A DNA stretch of 31,948 bases from a virus. Taxonomy: Duplodnaviria; Caudoviricetes. This document shows, one piece after another, positions 12,381-31,948 of the stretch; within the stretch, counting starts at the first letter, position 1, and each line of letters begins with the position of its first letter. The notes beneath the pieces are model-generated. The model did not search any database, had not been told where the DNA came from, and saw nothing but the letters and a program-made list of their open reading frames with translations. Where the stretch lies: positions 1-31,948 of IMG/VR virus record IMGVR_UViG_3300036832_000322; one strand, given 5' to 3'. The translations under genes were made by a program, and so were the position numbers.

Positions 12381-13514
12381 TTACCTCGCGGCCGCGCGGA
12401 TCGCGCGGGTGGTCTTGGCCGCGGCGCGCCCTTTCGCGGCCGCATTGGCGTCGGGGGTTTTCGGCCCACGTGGTGTCCGTTTCGCGTCGGCCGCGTTGAT
12501 CGCCGCGATCGCTTTACGGTTGACGGCCTCGTCGGCGCCCTGGGCGTACTGCGCCGTCGCGCGCGAGTTTTTCGCGTGGCCGAGCAACCGCCCGACGGTC
12601 GCGAGATCGCCCGTCTGCTCGTACAACGTTTTGCCCTGAGAGTGGCGGCCGCCGTACAGGTGGATCGGCGTCGTCTCGCCGTCGACGCGCCGTGCGGCGC
12701 GCTTGAACGATTTACTCACGGCGCGCGGGACAAATTTGCCGAACGCGTCGGCGGCGTCAAACGCGCGCAACGCGGCCTCGCCACGGGCCGTGAACGGGAT
12801 CCACCGGGCGGGCACCCCATGCCCCTTTTCACTGGCGGGCCATTGGAGATCGCCGGTACTCCACCGGATATCCGATCGGCGAATTTTGCGAAGATCGCCG
12901 GGCCGGATCCCGACGGTCGCGACGACGCGCGCGGCCAGGCGCGCGATTGACGGCGCCGTGATCCCTTTCTTGATAAACCGCGTGTCGGGCATCGTCTCGA
13001 GGATCGTCTCGAGCGTGTCGTGCGGGATCGAATGGTCGCGCGGGATCCAGTGTTTGGGGCACGTCGTCGCCTCGACCAGATTCACCGTCTCCGGGCCGTC
13101 GAGCACGTTGTACAGGCGCACGAGCGCCGCGCGGCGGTGGTACACGGTGGGCTCGGCCAGGCCGGCCGCGAGCCACCCCTGGATCACGGCCTCGAGCTCG
13201 TCGCGGGTGATCGTGGCGCGGGCGCGACTGCCGCCGAGCGCCTCGCACCATAGCCGGAGATAGCGCGCCGTTTGGTGCACGTACGTTTGCGCGGCGATCT
13301 CGGGTTTCGCGAGAAAGTCGGCGACGTCCGCGTTGAGCGAGCCCGAGCCCGCGTGCCCGGTCGCTTTCACCTTCTGCGCGGCGCGCCAGGTCCGCATCGT
13401 TTCGAGCGGCGTGTCATACGGATATTGCTTCACGAGCAATTCCCCGTCGACGCGGACGTACGCTTGCCACCCGGCGCCGTTGCGGCGGATCCCGGTTTCC
13501 TTACGCGCGATCAT
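12381..13514 (-). CDS. int: tyrosine integrase
   Basis: ATG at 13514 (ATGA overlap). GIRPGDL (R), SEKG (K), HLYGGRHS (Y in place of the HxxR His), LLGH and TAQY catalytic motifs. Adjacent to attP. Confidence 0.92.
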   Translation of the reverse strand: MIARKETGIRRNGAGWQAYVRVDGELLVKQYPYDTPLETMRTWRAAQKVKATGHAGSGSLNADVADFLAKPEIAAQTYVHQTARYLRLWCEALGGSRARATITRDELEAVIQGWLAAGLAEPTVYHRRAALVRLYNVLDGPETVNLVEATTCPKHWIPRDHSIPHDTLETILETMPDTRFIKKGITAPSIARLAARVVATVGIRPGDLRKIRRSDIRWSTGDLQWPASEKGHGVPARWIPFTARGEAALRAFDAADAFGKFVPRAVSKSFKRAARRVDGETTPIHLYGGRHSQGKTLYEQTGDLATVGRLLGHAKNSRATAQYAQGADEAVNRKAIAAINAADAKRTPRGPKTPDANAAAKGRAAAKTTRAIRAAAR

Positions 13515-13909
13515 GTGAGCTCGCTCAATTTGGCGGACCGCACAATCACGAGCGTTGTACGGCCCGGATACCACGGCGAATCAGACGAAATTTCCACGGT
13601 CACGAATACGCCCTCGCGCGCGGCGTCGGCCACGAGTTCGGCAACGCGGCCCGCGTTTGCATCGCCGTCGCCGTAGTCGTACGGTTCGCCTGTGACGACG
13701 TGTTGCCCGGTCGGATCAATCCACGTTCGGCCGTGATCGAACAATACGCGATGCCTTTCGCACAAGCATCGCGCGTGGCCGTGATGTGTCGGCCAGCGCC
13801 GCCCGACGTGACACCGTTTCCCAACGACGACCCGTGGGCAGTGGGGCGCGCCACTCGGCCGCAACTGATACCGGGCCAGCATGGCGGCGTCTTGATCGGC
13901 GTACGTCAT
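13511..13909 (-). CDS. hypothetical Cys/His-rich phage protein
   Basis: ATG at 13909 with RBS GGGGGCG, coupled on both sides. DHGRTW..VVTGEPY and SPWYPGRTTLV motifs. Confidence 0.65.
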   Translation of the reverse strand: MTYADQDAAMLARYQLRPSGAPHCPRVVVGKRCHVGRRWPTHHGHARCLCERHRVLFDHGRTWIDPTGQHVVTGEPYDYGDGDANAGRVAELVADAAREGVFVTVEISSDSPWYPGRTTLVIVRSAKLSELT

Positions 13910-14419: not shown

Positions 14420-14971
14420 TTAGCGGCGACGAGAAAGGTGTGACGTGTGTCGCGGCGGTTGCGGCGGCGTGGCTTGTGCGGGGGCGGCGCCTTCCAACAT
14501 GACGATAACGCTGTGGAGCGTGAGGAGGGATTCCCGGAGCGCCGTTCGAAACTCGGGTGAGTTAATAGGGGGTGGAGTCGTCGTCGCCGCCGAAACGTGA
14601 GGATCTTGCGATGAGGCATGCGACACGAAAACGTGTCTTGTATCACCGCTCGGCGCGGTTTTCAACTGTTCGATCTCCCGGAAGAAGTCCGACGCGTGCG
14701 TATAGCCGAGGCCGTAGATCGCGCCCAAGAGCGTCTTGGCGCTCGGCATGTACCCGGCGTCTTTTTCGATTTTCGAGATCGCGCCCTGGTCGACGTTCCC
14801 CGTGTACGCGATGTCTTTCTGCGTGAGACGGCGCCGCCGCCGTTCTTGCCGAAAATGTTGCCGCAGTTCCGCCCATTCGAGCATCGTGGGGCGAGTATAG
14901 CCAGCCAACACGGCACCTAAGTCATTTATGGTCTGCAACATCGGGGTAATCGCGGAATCGCCATCAGACAT
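14420..14971 (-). CDS. XRE-family HTH repressor (cI-like)
   Basis: RRRRRLTQKDIAYTGNVDQGAISKIEKD..PSAKTL..I..GLG. Divergent from the cro-like gene. The true start may be ATG 14941 or 14884. Confidence 0.8.
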   Translation of the reverse strand: MSDGDSAITPMLQTINDLGAVLAGYTRPTMLEWAELRQHFRQERRRRRLTQKDIAYTGNVDQGAISKIEKDAGYMPSAKTLLGAIYGLGYTHASDFFREIEQLKTAPSGDTRHVFVSHASSQDPHVSAATTTPPPINSPEFRTALRESLLTLHSVIVMLEGAAPAQATPPQPPRHTSHLSRRR

Positions 14972-15017
14972 AGGGTTCTAAAATATGTTGACACACGATG
15001 TAGCACTCCATTAACGT
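14925..15017. promoter_or_regulatory. divergent switch region: rightward promoter and inverted operator pair
   Basis: TTGACA 14988-14993 and TAACGT 15012-15017. CGATGTAGCACTCCATTAA (14996-15014) matches the reverse complement of 14925-14943 at 15/19. Confidence 0.55.
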
Positions 15018-15026
15018 GCCGCCGTT

Positions 15027-15266
15027 ATGGGACGAAAACGTACGCAGGTTTACGTCGATCCCCGGGAGGATCTCCGCACGGCGCGTCTCAAGCGCGAGTT
15101 GACCCAACAGAAGCTGGCCGCCTTGTCGGGCATCGATCAAGGGCGTATTTCGAAGATCGAGAATGGCGAGATCAAAGATCCGGCCTTCTCGACCGTGCGC
15201 CTCTTGGCGCGTGCACTCAACATGGACCCGCGCGACCTCCGCTTCGCCCGTGATGACGCCGCCTGA
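15027..15266 (+). CDS. Cro-like XRE HTH regulator
   Basis: LRTARLKRELTQQKLAALSGIDQGRISKIENG...DP.FSTV..LARAL. Confidence 0.85.
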   Translation: MGRKRTQVYVDPREDLRTARLKRELTQQKLAALSGIDQGRISKIENGEIKDPAFSTVRLLARALNMDPRDLRFARDDAA

Positions 15267-15361
15267 ATGGAACCGCGGCATGAAATCGGCCAGCCCCGAC
15301 CGTTCCCGGCACTATGCAGTAAAGCATATTGAGTTGTCAATTCGGAATATTCGCTGAGGGG

Positions 15362-15592
15362 ATGATGACGCCGCGGCCTCGTTGCTACACCGTCGCGCAA
15401 TTGCTCGAGCTCTTGCAGATGCCGGCGAGCACGTTCGCCAATCTCAAGCGCGCCGGAAAACTGCCGTTTCTTGACGAGCTCCAACCCCGGCTCGGGAAAC
15501 ATGCGCGGTACCGGGCCGAGCCGGTGGATCGGTATCTCGAGAATCAACACAACGCGCGCCGCTCGAGTTTCCGCCTGGCGGTGCAACGGTGA
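15362..15592 (+). CDS. excisionase-like HTH (MerR/HTH_17) protein
   Basis: RBS GAGGGG. YTVAQLLELLQMPASTF..L...GKLP..ARYRAE.VDRYL. Confidence 0.7.
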   Translation: MMTPRPRCYTVAQLLELLQMPASTFANLKRAGKLPFLDELQPRLGKHARYRAEPVDRYLENQHNARRSSFRLAVQR

Positions 15593-15729
15593 TCCTCGGG
15601 GCGATCGTGGGGCTCGTCGCCGCGATCGTGTTCGTGATCGGGTTTTGGCGGGGACACCCGGCGCCAGACGAGCGGTACGTGTCGGCCGCGTGGCGCGACG
15701 AGCATCTCCGGGGACGGCGCGATGGGTAA
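15589..15729 (+). CDS. small single-TM membrane protein
   Basis: GTG at 15589 (GTGA overlap). MILGAIVGLVAAIVFVIGFWRGHPAPDERYVSAAWRDEHLRGRRDG*; too short for the ORF track. Confidence 0.5.
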   Translation: MILGAIVGLVAAIVFVIGFWRGHPAPDERYVSAAWRDEHLRGRRDG

Positions 15730-15737
15730 CAGGAGCC

Positions 15738-16727
15738 ATGATGTCTGACACACTCACGCTGACCGCGCCGCCGGCCGTCACTGGCGACCAACTCGAACTC
15801 GTCAAACGCACCGTCGCCAACGGCGCGACCGACGCCGAGCTCAAATTATTTTTGTTCGATTGCGCGCGCCAGGGCGTGCACCCGCTCGACAAGCTGTTGC
15901 ACTTCACCAAGCGCGGCAGCAAGTACACGCCCGTGACGTCGATCGATCTGATGCGGACGCGCGCCGCCGATACCGGCGAGTACGCGGGCAGCGACGATGC
16001 GATGTTCGTGGGCGACGATCCGCCGTCGCACGCGACCGTGACGGTCTGGCGCCTCGTCCAAGGCGTGCGGTATCCGTTCACGGCCACGGCACGGTGGGCG
16101 GAGTACTACCCCGGCGATCAAAGCGGGCAGATGTGGCGCAAGATGCCGCACACGATGCTCGGCAAGTGCGCCGAGGCGCTCGCGCTCCGGAAGGGGTTTC
16201 CGCGGCAACTCGCCGGCCTGTACGCGGCCGAGGAATTGGATCAAGCGGGCGACGAGGCGCCGAGCGCGCCCGTCCCCGCTCGCTCACCTGAGAGGGCTGA
16301 TAGGACTGATAGGGCTGATAGAGCTGATAGGGCTGATACCTCTCAGTCGCCCCCGGCTGTGACCTCACCTGTCACACCGGCCACCTCGTCGCTCGAGCAC
16401 CTGGCCGACGGCGCCGTGTTGATCACGAAAGTCGAATTACCGTGGCACGGCCAGAAGGGCGGCGCGCAAGCGTTTCTCTTTCATAGCGGCCAACCCGTCG
16501 GGACCGACCGCGGCATCGCGATCTATCAGTCGGCGATCAAGGCGCTCGCGGAGGAATGCTGCCAGGCGCGGACGCCGGTCGTGCTCGCGATCGCCGCGTC
16601 CAAAGCGACGGGCAGTTTGTACGTCAAAAGCATTCGGCCGCTCGCCGACGTCGCCCGCGAGGCCGCGGCGCCGAGCGAGACGGGTGATCTGCCACCGATT
16701 GCGACGGCGGACGACGCCCCTTTTTAA
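15738..16727 (+). CDS. bet: RecT/Bet-family single-strand annealing protein
   Basis: RBS AGGAG. GATDAELKLFL..C...G.HPL.K, SID.MR.RA..TGEYAG, WRKMP.TML.KCAEALALRKGFP....GLY..EE, acidic DDAPF tail. Confidence 0.9.
   Translation: MMSDTLTLTAPPAVTGDQLELVKRTVANGATDAELKLFLFDCARQGVHPLDKLLHFTKRGSKYTPVTSIDLMRTRAADTGEYAGSDDAMFVGDDPPSHATVTVWRLVQGVRYPFTATARWAEYYPGDQSGQMWRKMPHTMLGKCAEALALRKGFPRQLAGLYAAEELDQAGDEAPSAPVPARSPERADRTDRADRADRADTSQSPPAVTSPVTPATSSLEHLADGAVLITKVELPWHGQKGGAQAFLFHSGQPVGTDRGIAIYQSAIKALAEECCQARTPVVLAIAASKATGSLYVKSIRPLADVAREAAAPSETGDLPPIATADDAPF
16288..16346 (+). repeat. 5 x 9-bp tandem repeat bracketed by an 8-bp inverted repeat inside bet
   Basis: AGGGCTGAT, AGGACTGAT, AGGGCTGAT, AGAGCTGAT, AGGGCTGAT at 16293-16337. 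CTGAGAGG at 16288 and CCTCTCAG at 16339. Confidence 0.9.
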
Positions 16728-16886
16728 CCCCGTCGCTGTGCTTCAAGCATTGGTGGTACTGGGCGACGTTCAACGTGCTCAAGTGCAAGCGGTGCGGGCG
16801 CGTGAAAATCGCAGACAGATAACTTTCGGACGGGGCGAGGCGACCGCGGCCCCTGCAACAGCGGTCAACACTTGGAGTATTCGAGC

Positions 16887-17552
16887 ATGGCAAAAACGGC
16901 ACCGAAAGACGACGGCGTCGCGATCATTCAAGCGGCGAACATTGTCACGACAACCCTACGGATCCGCTCACGCTCACCGTTCGTACAAAACAAATTCGGT
17001 CAAAAAGGGAAAGCGCAAATGATGGCGGCCATGTCGACGCCGAAAGCGGCGCGGCCGGCCAAATCGGCGCGCGCGCCGCGAGATTTCGATCAGGATTTTG
17101 AGCAGGCGCAGCATAAGGCCGTCGGCGGGTGGGTCGGGATCCCGTGCTCGGCGTTTCGCGCCGCGATGATCGCGGCCTGTCGAACGGTAAATGTCGTCAT
17201 GACCAAGGCCAAGATGGCGGTCTTTATCGTCGCCGACGGATTCGACGCCGACGACGGGACGCCGCTCGTGCGATTGCAGAGTGCGGCGCCGCCCGAACGC
17301 ACTGAGTTACCCGTACGCAACGACAACGGATCGGCCGACATCCGGGTGCGCCCGATGTGGCGTGAGTGGTGGGCCGACGTCACGATCGAATTTGACGCCG
17401 ACATGATCACGGCCGAGTCGGTGATCAATCTGCTCGATCGCGCGGGCCGTCAGGTCGGCGTCGGCGAGGGGCGCCCCTTCTCGAAAAATTCCGTCGGCAT
17501 GGGGTGGGGCACATTCACCGTAGAACCGACGGCAAAGGAGCACGCCGCATGA
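16887..17552 (+). CDS. stand-alone Cas7/RAMP-like protein (candidate effector of the pentamer-repeat array)
   Basis: RBS GGAG. RAMP-type motifs: LRIRSRSPFVQ (beta1), GIPCSAFRAAM (cf. IPGSSxKG), C-terminal Gly-rich loop GVGEGRP..SVGMGWGTF. No other cas genes nearby. Confidence 0.75.
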   Translation: MAKTAPKDDGVAIIQAANIVTTTLRIRSRSPFVQNKFGQKGKAQMMAAMSTPKAARPAKSARAPRDFDQDFEQAQHKAVGGWVGIPCSAFRAAMIAACRTVNVVMTKAKMAVFIVADGFDADDGTPLVRLQSAAPPERTELPVRNDNGSADIRVRPMWREWWADVTIEFDADMITAESVINLLDRAGRQVGVGEGRPFSKNSVGMGWGTFTVEPTAKEHAA

Positions 17553-18076
17553 AAGCGACCAATACCGATCTCGGGCGCGAGCATCTCCGCGCGGCCTTAC
17601 ACGCGATCGTCGAAGGCAATCACGGCGTGCTCGATCCGCGCCACGTGCTCGATCACGCGCGCGATCCCGAGCACGTGTTGCACGGCTATTTCGAATGGGA
17701 CGACACGGTAGCGGGTGAAGCGTACCGGCTCGCGCAAGTCGGCGCGCTCATTCGGCACGTGCGATACACCGTCGTGCGCGCCGATCCCGCGACGCGGGCG
17801 ATCGCGATCTCGACGACGCGCGCGTATCAGAGTCGGCCGAGTATGCGCGGGAAGGGCAAGGGCGGGTACGAGGATGTCGTCGCGATCCTCAGCGACGCCG
17901 CCAAACGCGCGGAATTGCTCGGACACGTCGTACGCGAGCTCTCGGCATATCGCAAGCGGTACGCCGAATTGTCGGAACTTGAAACGGTGTGGATCGCGGT
18001 CGACGAGGTACGCAGCGATCTCGAGATTCCGCCGTCCGCTCCAACGGCGGAACCACGGCACGGTGCGGCTGACTAG
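17549..18076 (+). CDS. phage protein coupled to the RAMP-like gene (accessory gene)
   Basis: RBS AAGGAG and ATGA overlap. VLDHARDPEHVLHGYFEWDD..AGEAYRL.Q...LIR motif. Its stop codon overlaps the first base of the array. Confidence 0.75.
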   Translation: MKATNTDLGREHLRAALHAIVEGNHGVLDPRHVLDHARDPEHVLHGYFEWDDTVAGEAYRLAQVGALIRHVRYTVVRADPATRAIAISTTRAYQSRPSMRGKGKGGYEDVVAILSDAAKRAELLGHVVRELSAYRKRYAELSELETVWIAVDEVRSDLEIPPSAPTAEPRHGAAD

Positions 18077-18566
18077 GCGCGGCGAGGTTGGGCGAGGGCT
18101 GGCGCGGCAGGTGTGGCTCGGGCTGGCATGGCAGGGCCCGGTGGGCGCGGTTAGGCGTCGCCCGGTGGGGTACGGCTAGGCGTGGCAGGCGGCGCGCGGC
18201 GTGCCGTGGTTAGGTATGGCGTCCGGCGGTGCGGCTAGGTTGGGCGCGGCAGGCGCGGCGCGGTTAGGTATGGCACGTCGGGGCGTGTCACGGGTTGGTT
18301 GGGCGCGGCAGGTGTGGTTTGGCACGGCACGGGCTGGCGCGGCGCCGTACGGTCGGGTGCGGCGCGGCAGGTGGCGCATGGTCAGGCAAGGCGGGGATTG
18401 GTCTGGCAGGGCCAGGTAAGGCGAGGCGCGGCAGGTAGGGCGCGGTCGGCACGCTCGGGCTCGGCGCGGCCAGGCTCGCGGTGGCGTGGCAGGCGTGACG
18501 AGGCGAGGTGCGGCATGGCGAGGCGCGGCATGGTGCGGCATAGCGAGGTATGGCGAGGCGCGGCGA
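18076..18566 (+). ncRNA. GGY-NN pentamer array (putative multi-guide RNA precursor)
   Basis: Hand parse gives 91 pentamers (74 start with GGY), seven GGCA 4-mers and two other 4-mers. GGCGYGGCAGGY recurs at 18101, 18179, 18243, 18302, 18361, 18425 and 18483. Confidence 0.8.
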
Positions 18567-18624
18567 CGCGGCCCAAGGATCAACCCGAGCTCGATCCCAT
18601 TTGAGACGGAAAGGCGGCGGACTA

Positions 18625-18846
18625 ATGAGTCGACGGACGACGAAACTCGAAGAAGCAATCACCGCGATCACGAAAGAAATTGACGCCGCGGTTTTCGAGC
18701 TCGCCGTGCTGCAAGGGACGCGCGAACGCTTGCGCGCCTTGCGCCGGCGCGAGCCCGACGAGGCGCGCGAGCTCGAACTCGAGGCCGACGACGCAGCGCC
18801 CGTCGTCGCGGCGATCGGGCCCAATGGACGCGAGCGCCAGGGGTAA
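18625..18846 (+). CDS. small coiled-coil hypothetical protein
   Basis: ATG at 18625 after GGAAAGG. MSRRTTKLEEAITAITKEIDAAVFELAVLQGTRERLRAL shows a heptad pattern. Confidence 0.65.
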   Translation: MSRRTTKLEEAITAITKEIDAAVFELAVLQGTRERLRALRRREPDEARELELEADDAAPVVAAIGPNGRERQG

Positions 18847-18850
18847 CCCC

Positions 18851-19228
18851 ATGTGGGCCCGGCTCGACGACGCGTTGATTGATCACGCCAAAATTTTCAC
18901 CGCGGGCGCGCACCTCGGCACGAACGGCGCGGCGATCGCGATCGGGATGTTCGCCGTCGGGTTGATTTGGTCGAATCGCCATTTGAGCGACGGGTTTTTA
19001 CCGGCCGCCGTTGTGAAACGGTTTCCGCACGTCGAACGCCCGCTAAAAGTCGCCGATGCCCTCGTGAAGGCGGGATTGTGGGAAACGACCGAGGGCGGGT
19101 TTCGCGTGCATGACTTTCACGAGTGGAACCTCGGCCATGCCGACGCGCGCGCGAAACGGGATCACGTCGCCGATGTGCGTTCGAAAGCGGGCACCAACGG
19201 CGCGCGCGTCCGATGGCAAAAGCGATAG
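18851..19228 (+). CDS. replication initiator N-terminal (RepA-like winged-helix) domain
   Basis: MWARLDD.LIDH.K, W.N...SDGFLP, LVKAGLWE...GGFRVHDF.EWN. Ends at a cluster of iteron-like repeats. Confidence 0.75.
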   Translation: MWARLDDALIDHAKIFTAGAHLGTNGAAIAIGMFAVGLIWSNRHLSDGFLPAAVVKRFPHVERPLKVADALVKAGLWETTEGGFRVHDFHEWNLGHADARAKRDHVADVRSKAGTNGARVRWQKR

Positions 19229-19376
19229 CAAACGTGATGGCAAACGACATGGCAAAACGCCGCATTTGTCACGATGGCAAATGGCAAAACCGATGGCAAA
19301 CCGATGGCCCCTATCCCTGTACGTACCTTTTTGCTATCGGAGGTACGGGCGAGCACGGAGTGCAGAGCCCCGTACC
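19212..19376. repeat. putative replication origin (iterons and hairpin)
   Basis: ATRGCAAA-core repeats at 19212, 19224, 19236, 19248, 19273, 19281 and 19292, partial at 19303, inverted at 19330-19339. GGTACGGG/CCCGTACC stem at 19342-19376. Confidence 0.7.
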
Positions 19377-31749: not shown

Positions 31750-31938
31750 ATGGATCCGACTCCCACGATCGTCAACGGGCGCGCGGTCGTCTTTCCGGCG
31801 ACCGTGTGCGCGCTCGTGTATCACACGACGGACAGCGTCGATCCGCACGCCGAGGGCGACGAATACACCGTCTCGGATCCGGCGTTGTTCGAGACGTTGA
31901 TCGCGATCGGCTTTGTGCATTACGAACCGGCCCCGTGA
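31750..31938 (+). CDS. small capsid-operon protein, distantly similar to the previous gene
   Basis: HTTD....AEGDEYTV..LIAIGFV. RBS AAAGG. Confidence 0.6.
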   Translation: MDPTPTIVNGRAVVFPATVCALVYHTTDSVDPHAEGDEYTVSDPALFETLIAIGFVHYEPAP

Positions 31939-31948
31939 ACGTTTTCGG

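Follow-up and report, generated by a model that had tools for sequence, protein, structure and literature searches.

The last segment of a phage VIPR array matches the orthologue of its adjoining gene in sibling phages better than the carrier's own copy

We analyzed the virus record IMGVR_UViG_3300036832_000322 at its full length (31,948 nucleotides (nt); hereafter, the window). It comes from a temperate soil phage that carries a VIPR system, comprising a RAMP-fold protein (Vipr), a putative accessory gene (vap-like) and a staggered array of GGY/NN repeats. The last segment of the array (18492..18566, + strand), a predicted vrRNA guide of 15 units, matches the next gene downstream, an open reading frame (ORF) of 73 amino acids (aa; 18625..18846, + strand), in 24 of the 30 bases that it reads, and the orthologues of this gene in two sibling phages in 27 of 30. 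With a probability of roughly 0.65, this segment is a kin-directed guide that would silence the early replication operon of the siblings, the carrier being spared by mismatches.

VIPR systems were described in 2026 preprints (10.64898/2026.04.26.720920; 10.64898/2026.04.26.720927). In these systems each RNA consists of 9–16 tandem GGY/NN units, one Vipr sits on each 5-nt unit, NN pairs with DNA, every third base is skipped, and binding to either strand represses. For target reading, each GGY counts as a single wildcard; the NN string is thus compared with the sense strand two bases at a time, and the base passed over after each pair is mostly the wobble base (10.64898/2026.04.26.720920). In the 5-nt register, the NN string of the last segment is GT GA GA GC AT GA GC AT GC AT GA AT GA GC GA.

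The last segment matches the adjoining gene in its own genome

Read with a 1-nt skip, the last segment matches the + strand at 18646 in 24/30 nucleotides and 10/15 dinucleotides, as the first-pass annotation of this DNA had proposed. This is the best site on both strands of the window, the runner-up being at 20/30. The near-target (18646..18689, + strand) begins 79 nt past the last segment, covers codons 8–22 of the 73-aa ORF and is mismatched at units 1, 6, 9, 10 and 15. It lies in the codon register, and the skipped base is indeed the wobble position; the related idea that such a code resists synonymous escape is correct, yet already published (10.64898/2026.04.26.720920; 10.64898/2026.10.15.759431). 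With skips of 0 and 2 nt the maximum was 18 and 19, respectively, and with a skip of 3 nt the segment found the array itself and then 19. Only a skip of 1 nt yields an outlier in the window and in both siblings, in the codon register and for one of the eight segments. Judged from the sequence, the last segment thus shows the 1-nt-skip target reading, usually on the wobble base, that characterizes VIPR.

When the NN order was permuted, at least 24 nucleotides were matched in the window in 4/3,000 and 7/15,000 trials, and at least 10 dinucleotides in 6/3,000; hence permuted guides seldom do as well as the real one, and the null test that the first-pass annotation had called for does not refute the match. 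The P value stays at 0.0007–0.002 when the last one or two units, a possible scaffold, are dropped. Across 2,187,672 positions of 80 other VIPR loci, the real guide reached 22/30 at most. Allowing for eight segments, a self-match of such quality would arise by chance with a probability of about 0.004–0.02. The self-match alone is only moderately strong, as a large genome-wide scan meets such matches now and then by chance. The remaining segments gave no convincing match to the window, in agreement with the first-pass annotation, nor to the two siblings or a locus with a tail terminator (L007) discussed below: the lowest P value in 96 tests (12 parses x 2 trims x 4 targets) was 0.02, for one parse of the segment at 18434 against one sibling (G001).

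Sibling phages carry a better-matching allele

A search for homologues of the 73-aa protein identified the two sibling records, G001 and G002, whose long alignment blocks with the window are collinear and 83–91% identical in DNA. In both of them the orthologous site matches the guide at 27/30 nucleotides and 12/15 dinucleotides, the next-best sites reaching 19–20 nucleotides, and mismatches are found at units 9, 10 and 15 only. In G002, none of 15,000 permuted guides exceeded 24, other skips gave at most 20 and reversed guides at most 22. The sibling site was also the top cross-match of the ranked guides (543 guide segments were scanned, and those with at least 10 units were ranked).

The window and sibling alleles differ at just two read units (1 and 6). 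Between the window and G002, codons 1–43 contain four substitutions at codon positions 1–2, of which one is silent and lies outside the site, while each of the three nonsynonymous ones coincides with a guide mismatch, with G002 having the guide's base (P about 2e-5 by a rough post hoc estimate). The footprint contains all four of the amino-acid differences found in codons 1–43. Of the two roles that the first-pass annotation had offered for the guide, these results support the targeting of a rival related phage with self spared by mismatches (27/30 in G001 and G002 vs 24/30 in self, both alleles occurring in one sequencing run).

The sibling integrase is 81% identical to that of the window, but the siblings have a different repressor, and the window repressor and Cro have no tblastn match in them; hence, as far as sequence comparison can tell, the siblings are probably heteroimmune competitors of the window phage. 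Homology between the window and the siblings resumes at 18609, directly past the array. Between the excisionase and the 73-aa gene, where the window carries RecT and VIPR, the siblings have genes for exonuclease VIII and an unknown product, and vipr was found in neither of these two records, which are 72% and 84% complete and cover both flanks of the locus. The RecT and VIPR block (window 15592–18609) thus stands where the siblings have the exonuclease VIII block, so that VIPR appears to move with the recombination module. Elsewhere, the last 127 nt of the window (31822–31948) are identical to positions 1–127 of G002.

Homologues of the 73-aa protein and direction of change

Few homologues of the 73-aa protein were found, two of them in the sibling records. 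At the protein level, the guide fits four close full-length homologues in 11, 12, 12 and 12 of 15 units, all four being better than self (10). At unit 6 some of these four have Asp and others Glu, which is a change in a skipped base. The residue at this unit is acidic (Asp or Glu) in each of the five full-length homologues inspected besides the window, which has Thr, and therefore Thr is derived in the window. Searches for further orthologues yielded none among 597 candidate stretches of metagenome contigs and none among 62 candidates from genome contigs; a second scan of viral sequences added one match at 28% (L103), and GenBank phages gave one weak partial match.

Both phage types occur in one soil sample

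In the soil run X1, one run listed with the locus, a 2,013-nt contig has no differences to the window across vipr, the array and the target, and a 398-nt contig is identical to G002 over the complete orthologue and the junction that lacks VIPR. The window and sibling phage types therefore share one sample.

Proposed mechanism and points against it

In the mechanism that we favor, the last segment would be made and processed as a vrRNA, and Vipr would polymerize on it and bind the sibling gene at codons 8–22. The bound filament would then probably block transcription into the sibling replication initiator, presumably by polarity, and this silencing would act during co-infection or superinfection, beyond the reach of the carrier's repressor. 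The window phage and the sibling would have the host and the attachment site in common. Self would probably be spared by the two further units, 1 and 6, that are mismatched in the carrier, with a site of 27/30 being bound and one of 24/30 not, and the change from Glu/Asp to Thr in the carrier may have been selected as an escape. Natural functional SUSP1 targets match on average at 89.2% of read bases (10.64898/2026.10.15.759431); the sibling site has 90%, and self has 80%, the threshold for calling natural targets. We found no published mismatch tolerance for VIPR, and the accessible part of 10.64898/2026.04.26.720927 contains no passage on mismatches or a seed.

Several observations weigh against this mechanism. 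Three units are mismatched even in the siblings, and two of them, units 9–10, are nearer to the 3' end, at which the R-loop of SUSP1 begins (10.64898/2026.04.26.720927), so that the sibling site may bind poorly. Every homologue seen keeps Lys at unit 10, where the guide asks for Ile or Met. At unit 1, Leu is found in the distant homologue P0127 as well as in the window; hence only the unit-6 change is clearly derived, and the reading in which both self changes are derived was rejected. The records may themselves come from run X1, which makes the co-occurrence one observation and not an independent replication. Units 1–3 of the guide recur in the last segment of another VIPR array (L010), where no orthologue of the 73-aa gene showed. 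No perfect target was found: exact patterns of the last segment had no matches in viral contigs (13 units) or genome contigs (12 units). The guide spells a generic acidic helix, and a relaxed 12-unit pattern matched an unrelated tail terminator gene of an unrelated phage (L007, 1041–1085) at 28/30, this being one of three viral matches. All 11 metagenome matches of this pattern were in unrelated genes of four apparent families, at 24–28/30, eight of them in a family resembling SNF2-like helicases (a label read from the sequence) at 28/30. Finally, 543 guide segments of 81 vipr loci showed no excess of self-matches (four at P<0.01 and 17 at P<0.05).

The relaxed 12-unit pattern was built after the siblings had been seen, and so their recovery by it is no evidence. 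Exact 10-unit patterns of the segments at 18370, 18252 and 18188 had no matches in viral contigs. The 543-segment test covered segments of 8–20 units, with minus-strand chains dropped as probable coding noise and near-identical loci left unmerged; as the loci extend over at most about 20 kb, it has little power for targets at a distance from the array. The value of P 0.054 that it returned for the last-segment guide was set aside, because both sibling sites sat in its background. Within the stretches examined, neighbor matching is no rule of the array family. Among the cross-matches, the guide of L027 (11395) and L028 (3586) matches the vipr gene of L010 (7655) in the codon register at 17/20; it is a possible anti-vipr guide, though at the level of other chance cross-matches.

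Alternative explanations

The alternative that survives best, though we regard it as unlikely, is that of a relic: the segment was once written from the 73-aa gene in an ancestor or relative, guide and gene then drifted, and neither allele is bound today. Drift would account for the three units mismatched even in the siblings and for the Lys kept at unit 10, and GGY is broken in 2 of the guide's 15 units. Units 9–10 are an exact 10-nt copy of units 4–5, which suggests overwriting inside the array; on the relic hypothesis, this copy replaced the original units. Against a relic stand the sibling match of 27/30, which is on a par with functional SUSP1 targets on average, the clustering of the carrier's changes in the footprint, and the co-occurrence of the sibling with the carrier in run X1.

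Tuned autoregulation, the other role offered by the first-pass annotation, seems to us improbable. It supposes that the guide weakly binds its own 24/30 site and thereby tones down the replication genes, as might happen in a lysogen, the better sibling match being a by-product of descent. The self score is exactly the 80% cut-off for calling natural targets, the site heads the replication genes only 79 nt from the array, and vipr lies upstream in the same direction. Against this, the change at unit 6 has made the self allele fit the guide less well, the 543 segments show no general excess of self-matches, and the discovery paper reports no self-targeting at a threshold of at least 80% in the P. 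fulva, type III and type V guide sets (10.64898/2026.04.26.720920).

Least probable is a coincidence, in which the true target is some unrelated gene that encodes a comparable acidic helix, the L007-type tail terminator for instance, and the guide matches its neighbor by chance: the guide is built from only four common codon starts and both L007 and the SNF2-like family score 28/30, yet these matches come from whole collections, the real guide never rises above 22/30 in the 2.19 million background positions, and a codon model gives 2e-11 per codon, or about 2e-7 per 10,000 codons, for matches of at least 27/30, which are thus plausible in very large collections and implausible in a 28-kb sibling at the orthologue of the adjoining gene. 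We treat the L007 match as database-scale chance, although by its sequence it may be a target all the same.

The VIPR locus of the window

The vipr gene (16887..17552, + strand) encodes a protein of 221 aa, whose AlphaFold model (pLDDT 80.4) has its best Foldseek matches to subunits of CRISPR Csm and type VII complexes (E 5e-5). According to this model, Vipr, encoded outside any CRISPR locus, has the single-RRM RAMP (Cas7/Csm3-like) fold with a C-terminal glycine-rich loop that is expected of the family, and the glycine-rich C-terminal motif is invariant across 45 Vipr homologues. The protein has no Pfam match and falls in phrog_4652 (unknown function); 2,332 homologues were found at E<=0.001. 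The gene for a 175-aa protein between vipr and the array (17549..18076, + strand) occupies the place expected for vap, its label as vap-like being derived from position only; it belongs to phrog_15946 (unknown function) and has a 73% identical counterpart in the same place in L010.

The array (18057..18571, + strand) comprises eight segments of 8–16 units with tandem GGY repeats and variable NN, starting at 18071, 18110, 18188, 18252, 18311, 18370, 18434 and 18492; the last segment is the eighth if the short first one at 18071 is counted. A GGCAG unit closes seven of the eight segments and overlaps the next segment by 1 nt (a 4-nt step). This 1-nt overlap of successive segments is the staggered form of VIPR, matching the legend of fig. 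S18 in 10.64898/2026.04.26.720920, and processing into separate vrRNAs is predicted from it. The same architecture recurs in most of the 80 vipr loci fetched. The stretches 18110–18188 and 18434–18492 have an internal 1-nt register shift, that is, a deletion or an extra junction other than GGCAG.

Other assignments were rejected. A type II VIPR system (SUSP1 / P. fulva) does not fit, as the segments abut without an invariant structured 3' tail, and the region 18552–18630 folds worse than all 200 shuffles. A CRISPR mini-array is contradicted by the 5-nt period and by the lack of a long constant repeat and of contiguous spacers; a search of the array against Rfam gave no match at the gathering score and no CRISPR repeat. 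TIGR-Tas, the first lead, was dropped because the period and the protein fold fit VIPR.

The nearest VIPR relative is L010 (8572–9495), with a Vipr 79% identical to that of the window and a similar position between recombination and replication genes. Its array, 920 nt long, is strongly degenerate, and its last segment has a 17-nt run in common with the start of the window's last segment.

Genomic context

To the left of the module, the window carries an integrase gene (12381–13574), an immunity region (14420..15266) with a repressor-like gene (14420–14971, - strand) and a Cro-like gene (15027–15266, + strand), an excisionase-like gene (15329–15592) and RecT within the ORF 15471–16727; terminase and capsid genes are at the right end. 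RecT is followed, all on the + strand, by vipr, the 175-aa gene, the array, the 73-aa ORF and a replication initiator-like gene (18851..19228, + strand; phrog_2447, replication initiation protein, E 2e-19), which begins about 4–5 nt past the 73-aa ORF. The latter is the first backbone gene common with the siblings after the VIPR module; its product has no match in Pfam or PHROG, and all its matches in the ESM Atlas score below 0.9 and include no named family. A consensus scan between the array and the target found no sigma-70 promoter and no terminator on the + strand.

Four short ATGGCAAA-type repeats, three of them spaced by 12 nt, are located at 19213–19301, at the end of the replication initiator gene, and are candidate origin iterons. 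Within the RecT-containing ORF, 16288–16347 holds 5–6 tandem 9-nt copies, whose coordinates imply an in-frame tripeptide repeat.

Relation to known systems and significance

The locus shares with published VIPR systems the RAMP-fold protein, a gene in the place of the accessory gene, the 5-nt GGY/NN units, segments overlapped by 1 nt, the 1-nt skip at the wobble base, the location in a phage and a predicted target in another phage. The reported VIPR targets are satellites, regulators of resident prophages and other VIPR loci (10.64898/2026.04.26.720920; 10.64898/2026.04.26.720927), whereas the target predicted here is a sibling's orthologue (83–91% genome-block identity) of the gene that adjoins the array in the carrier, self standing at exactly 80%. 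In contrast to SUSP1-like VIPR, no SUSP1-like structured tail was seen. Solo vrRNAs of the SUSP1 family, directed at vrRNA/vipr, also match self less well than rivals (10.64898/2026.10.15.759431) and resemble the last segment in aiming at relatives and in wobble-aligned reading; however, as far as the accessible text goes, they hit VIPR components or satellites, while the gene matched here belongs to the backbone and precedes the replication initiator in a VIPR-less sibling locus.

A close parallel is provided by the mini-CRISPR arrays of SPV1 and SPV2, whose spacers target closely related co-occurring viruses, whose targets lie near the array and whose carriers have mutated orthologous loci, avoiding self-targeting; heterotypic superinfection exclusion was proposed as their role (PMC6858448). 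In both cases the target, predicted in that of VIPR, stands beside the array and is mutated in the carrier. These arrays differ in having contiguous spacers that borrow host Cas proteins, in place of the phage-encoded effector, gapped code and predicted repression, not cleavage, of the window. A fourth VIPR paper concerns array detection (10.64898/2026.10.21.760802). In the accessible VIPR literature we found no report of a guide against the sibling orthologue of an adjoining backbone gene, although supplementary target tables may hold such cases. Thus, the feature is real and the system and its code are known, while the target class is new as far as the VIPR literature was searched.

The locus bears on the origin of guides, mismatch tolerance and self-avoidance of the carrier. 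It offers a natural pair of alleles (24/30 in self and 27/30 in the sibling) that are two read units apart and belong to phages found in one sample, which makes the discrimination between self and non-self directly testable by a reporter. It also extends to VIPR the mini-CRISPR pattern of a target beside the array that is mutated in the carrier, and it suggests that a wobble-skipping code forces an amino-acid change on the carrier itself. More tentatively, VIPR might act as a programmable kin exclusion that replaces repressor immunity against heteroimmune siblings, with a guide written from the first gene at the insertion boundary of the module. As changes at the wobble base give no escape, the carrier would then be forced to alter the amino acids encoded within the footprint, and the guide would now silence the replication operon of the co-occurring sibling. 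The guide and the resistant allele might travel as a selfish 300-nt unit of poison and antidote. If this is true, the position of the guide beside its target would suggest that guides are acquired by local templating.
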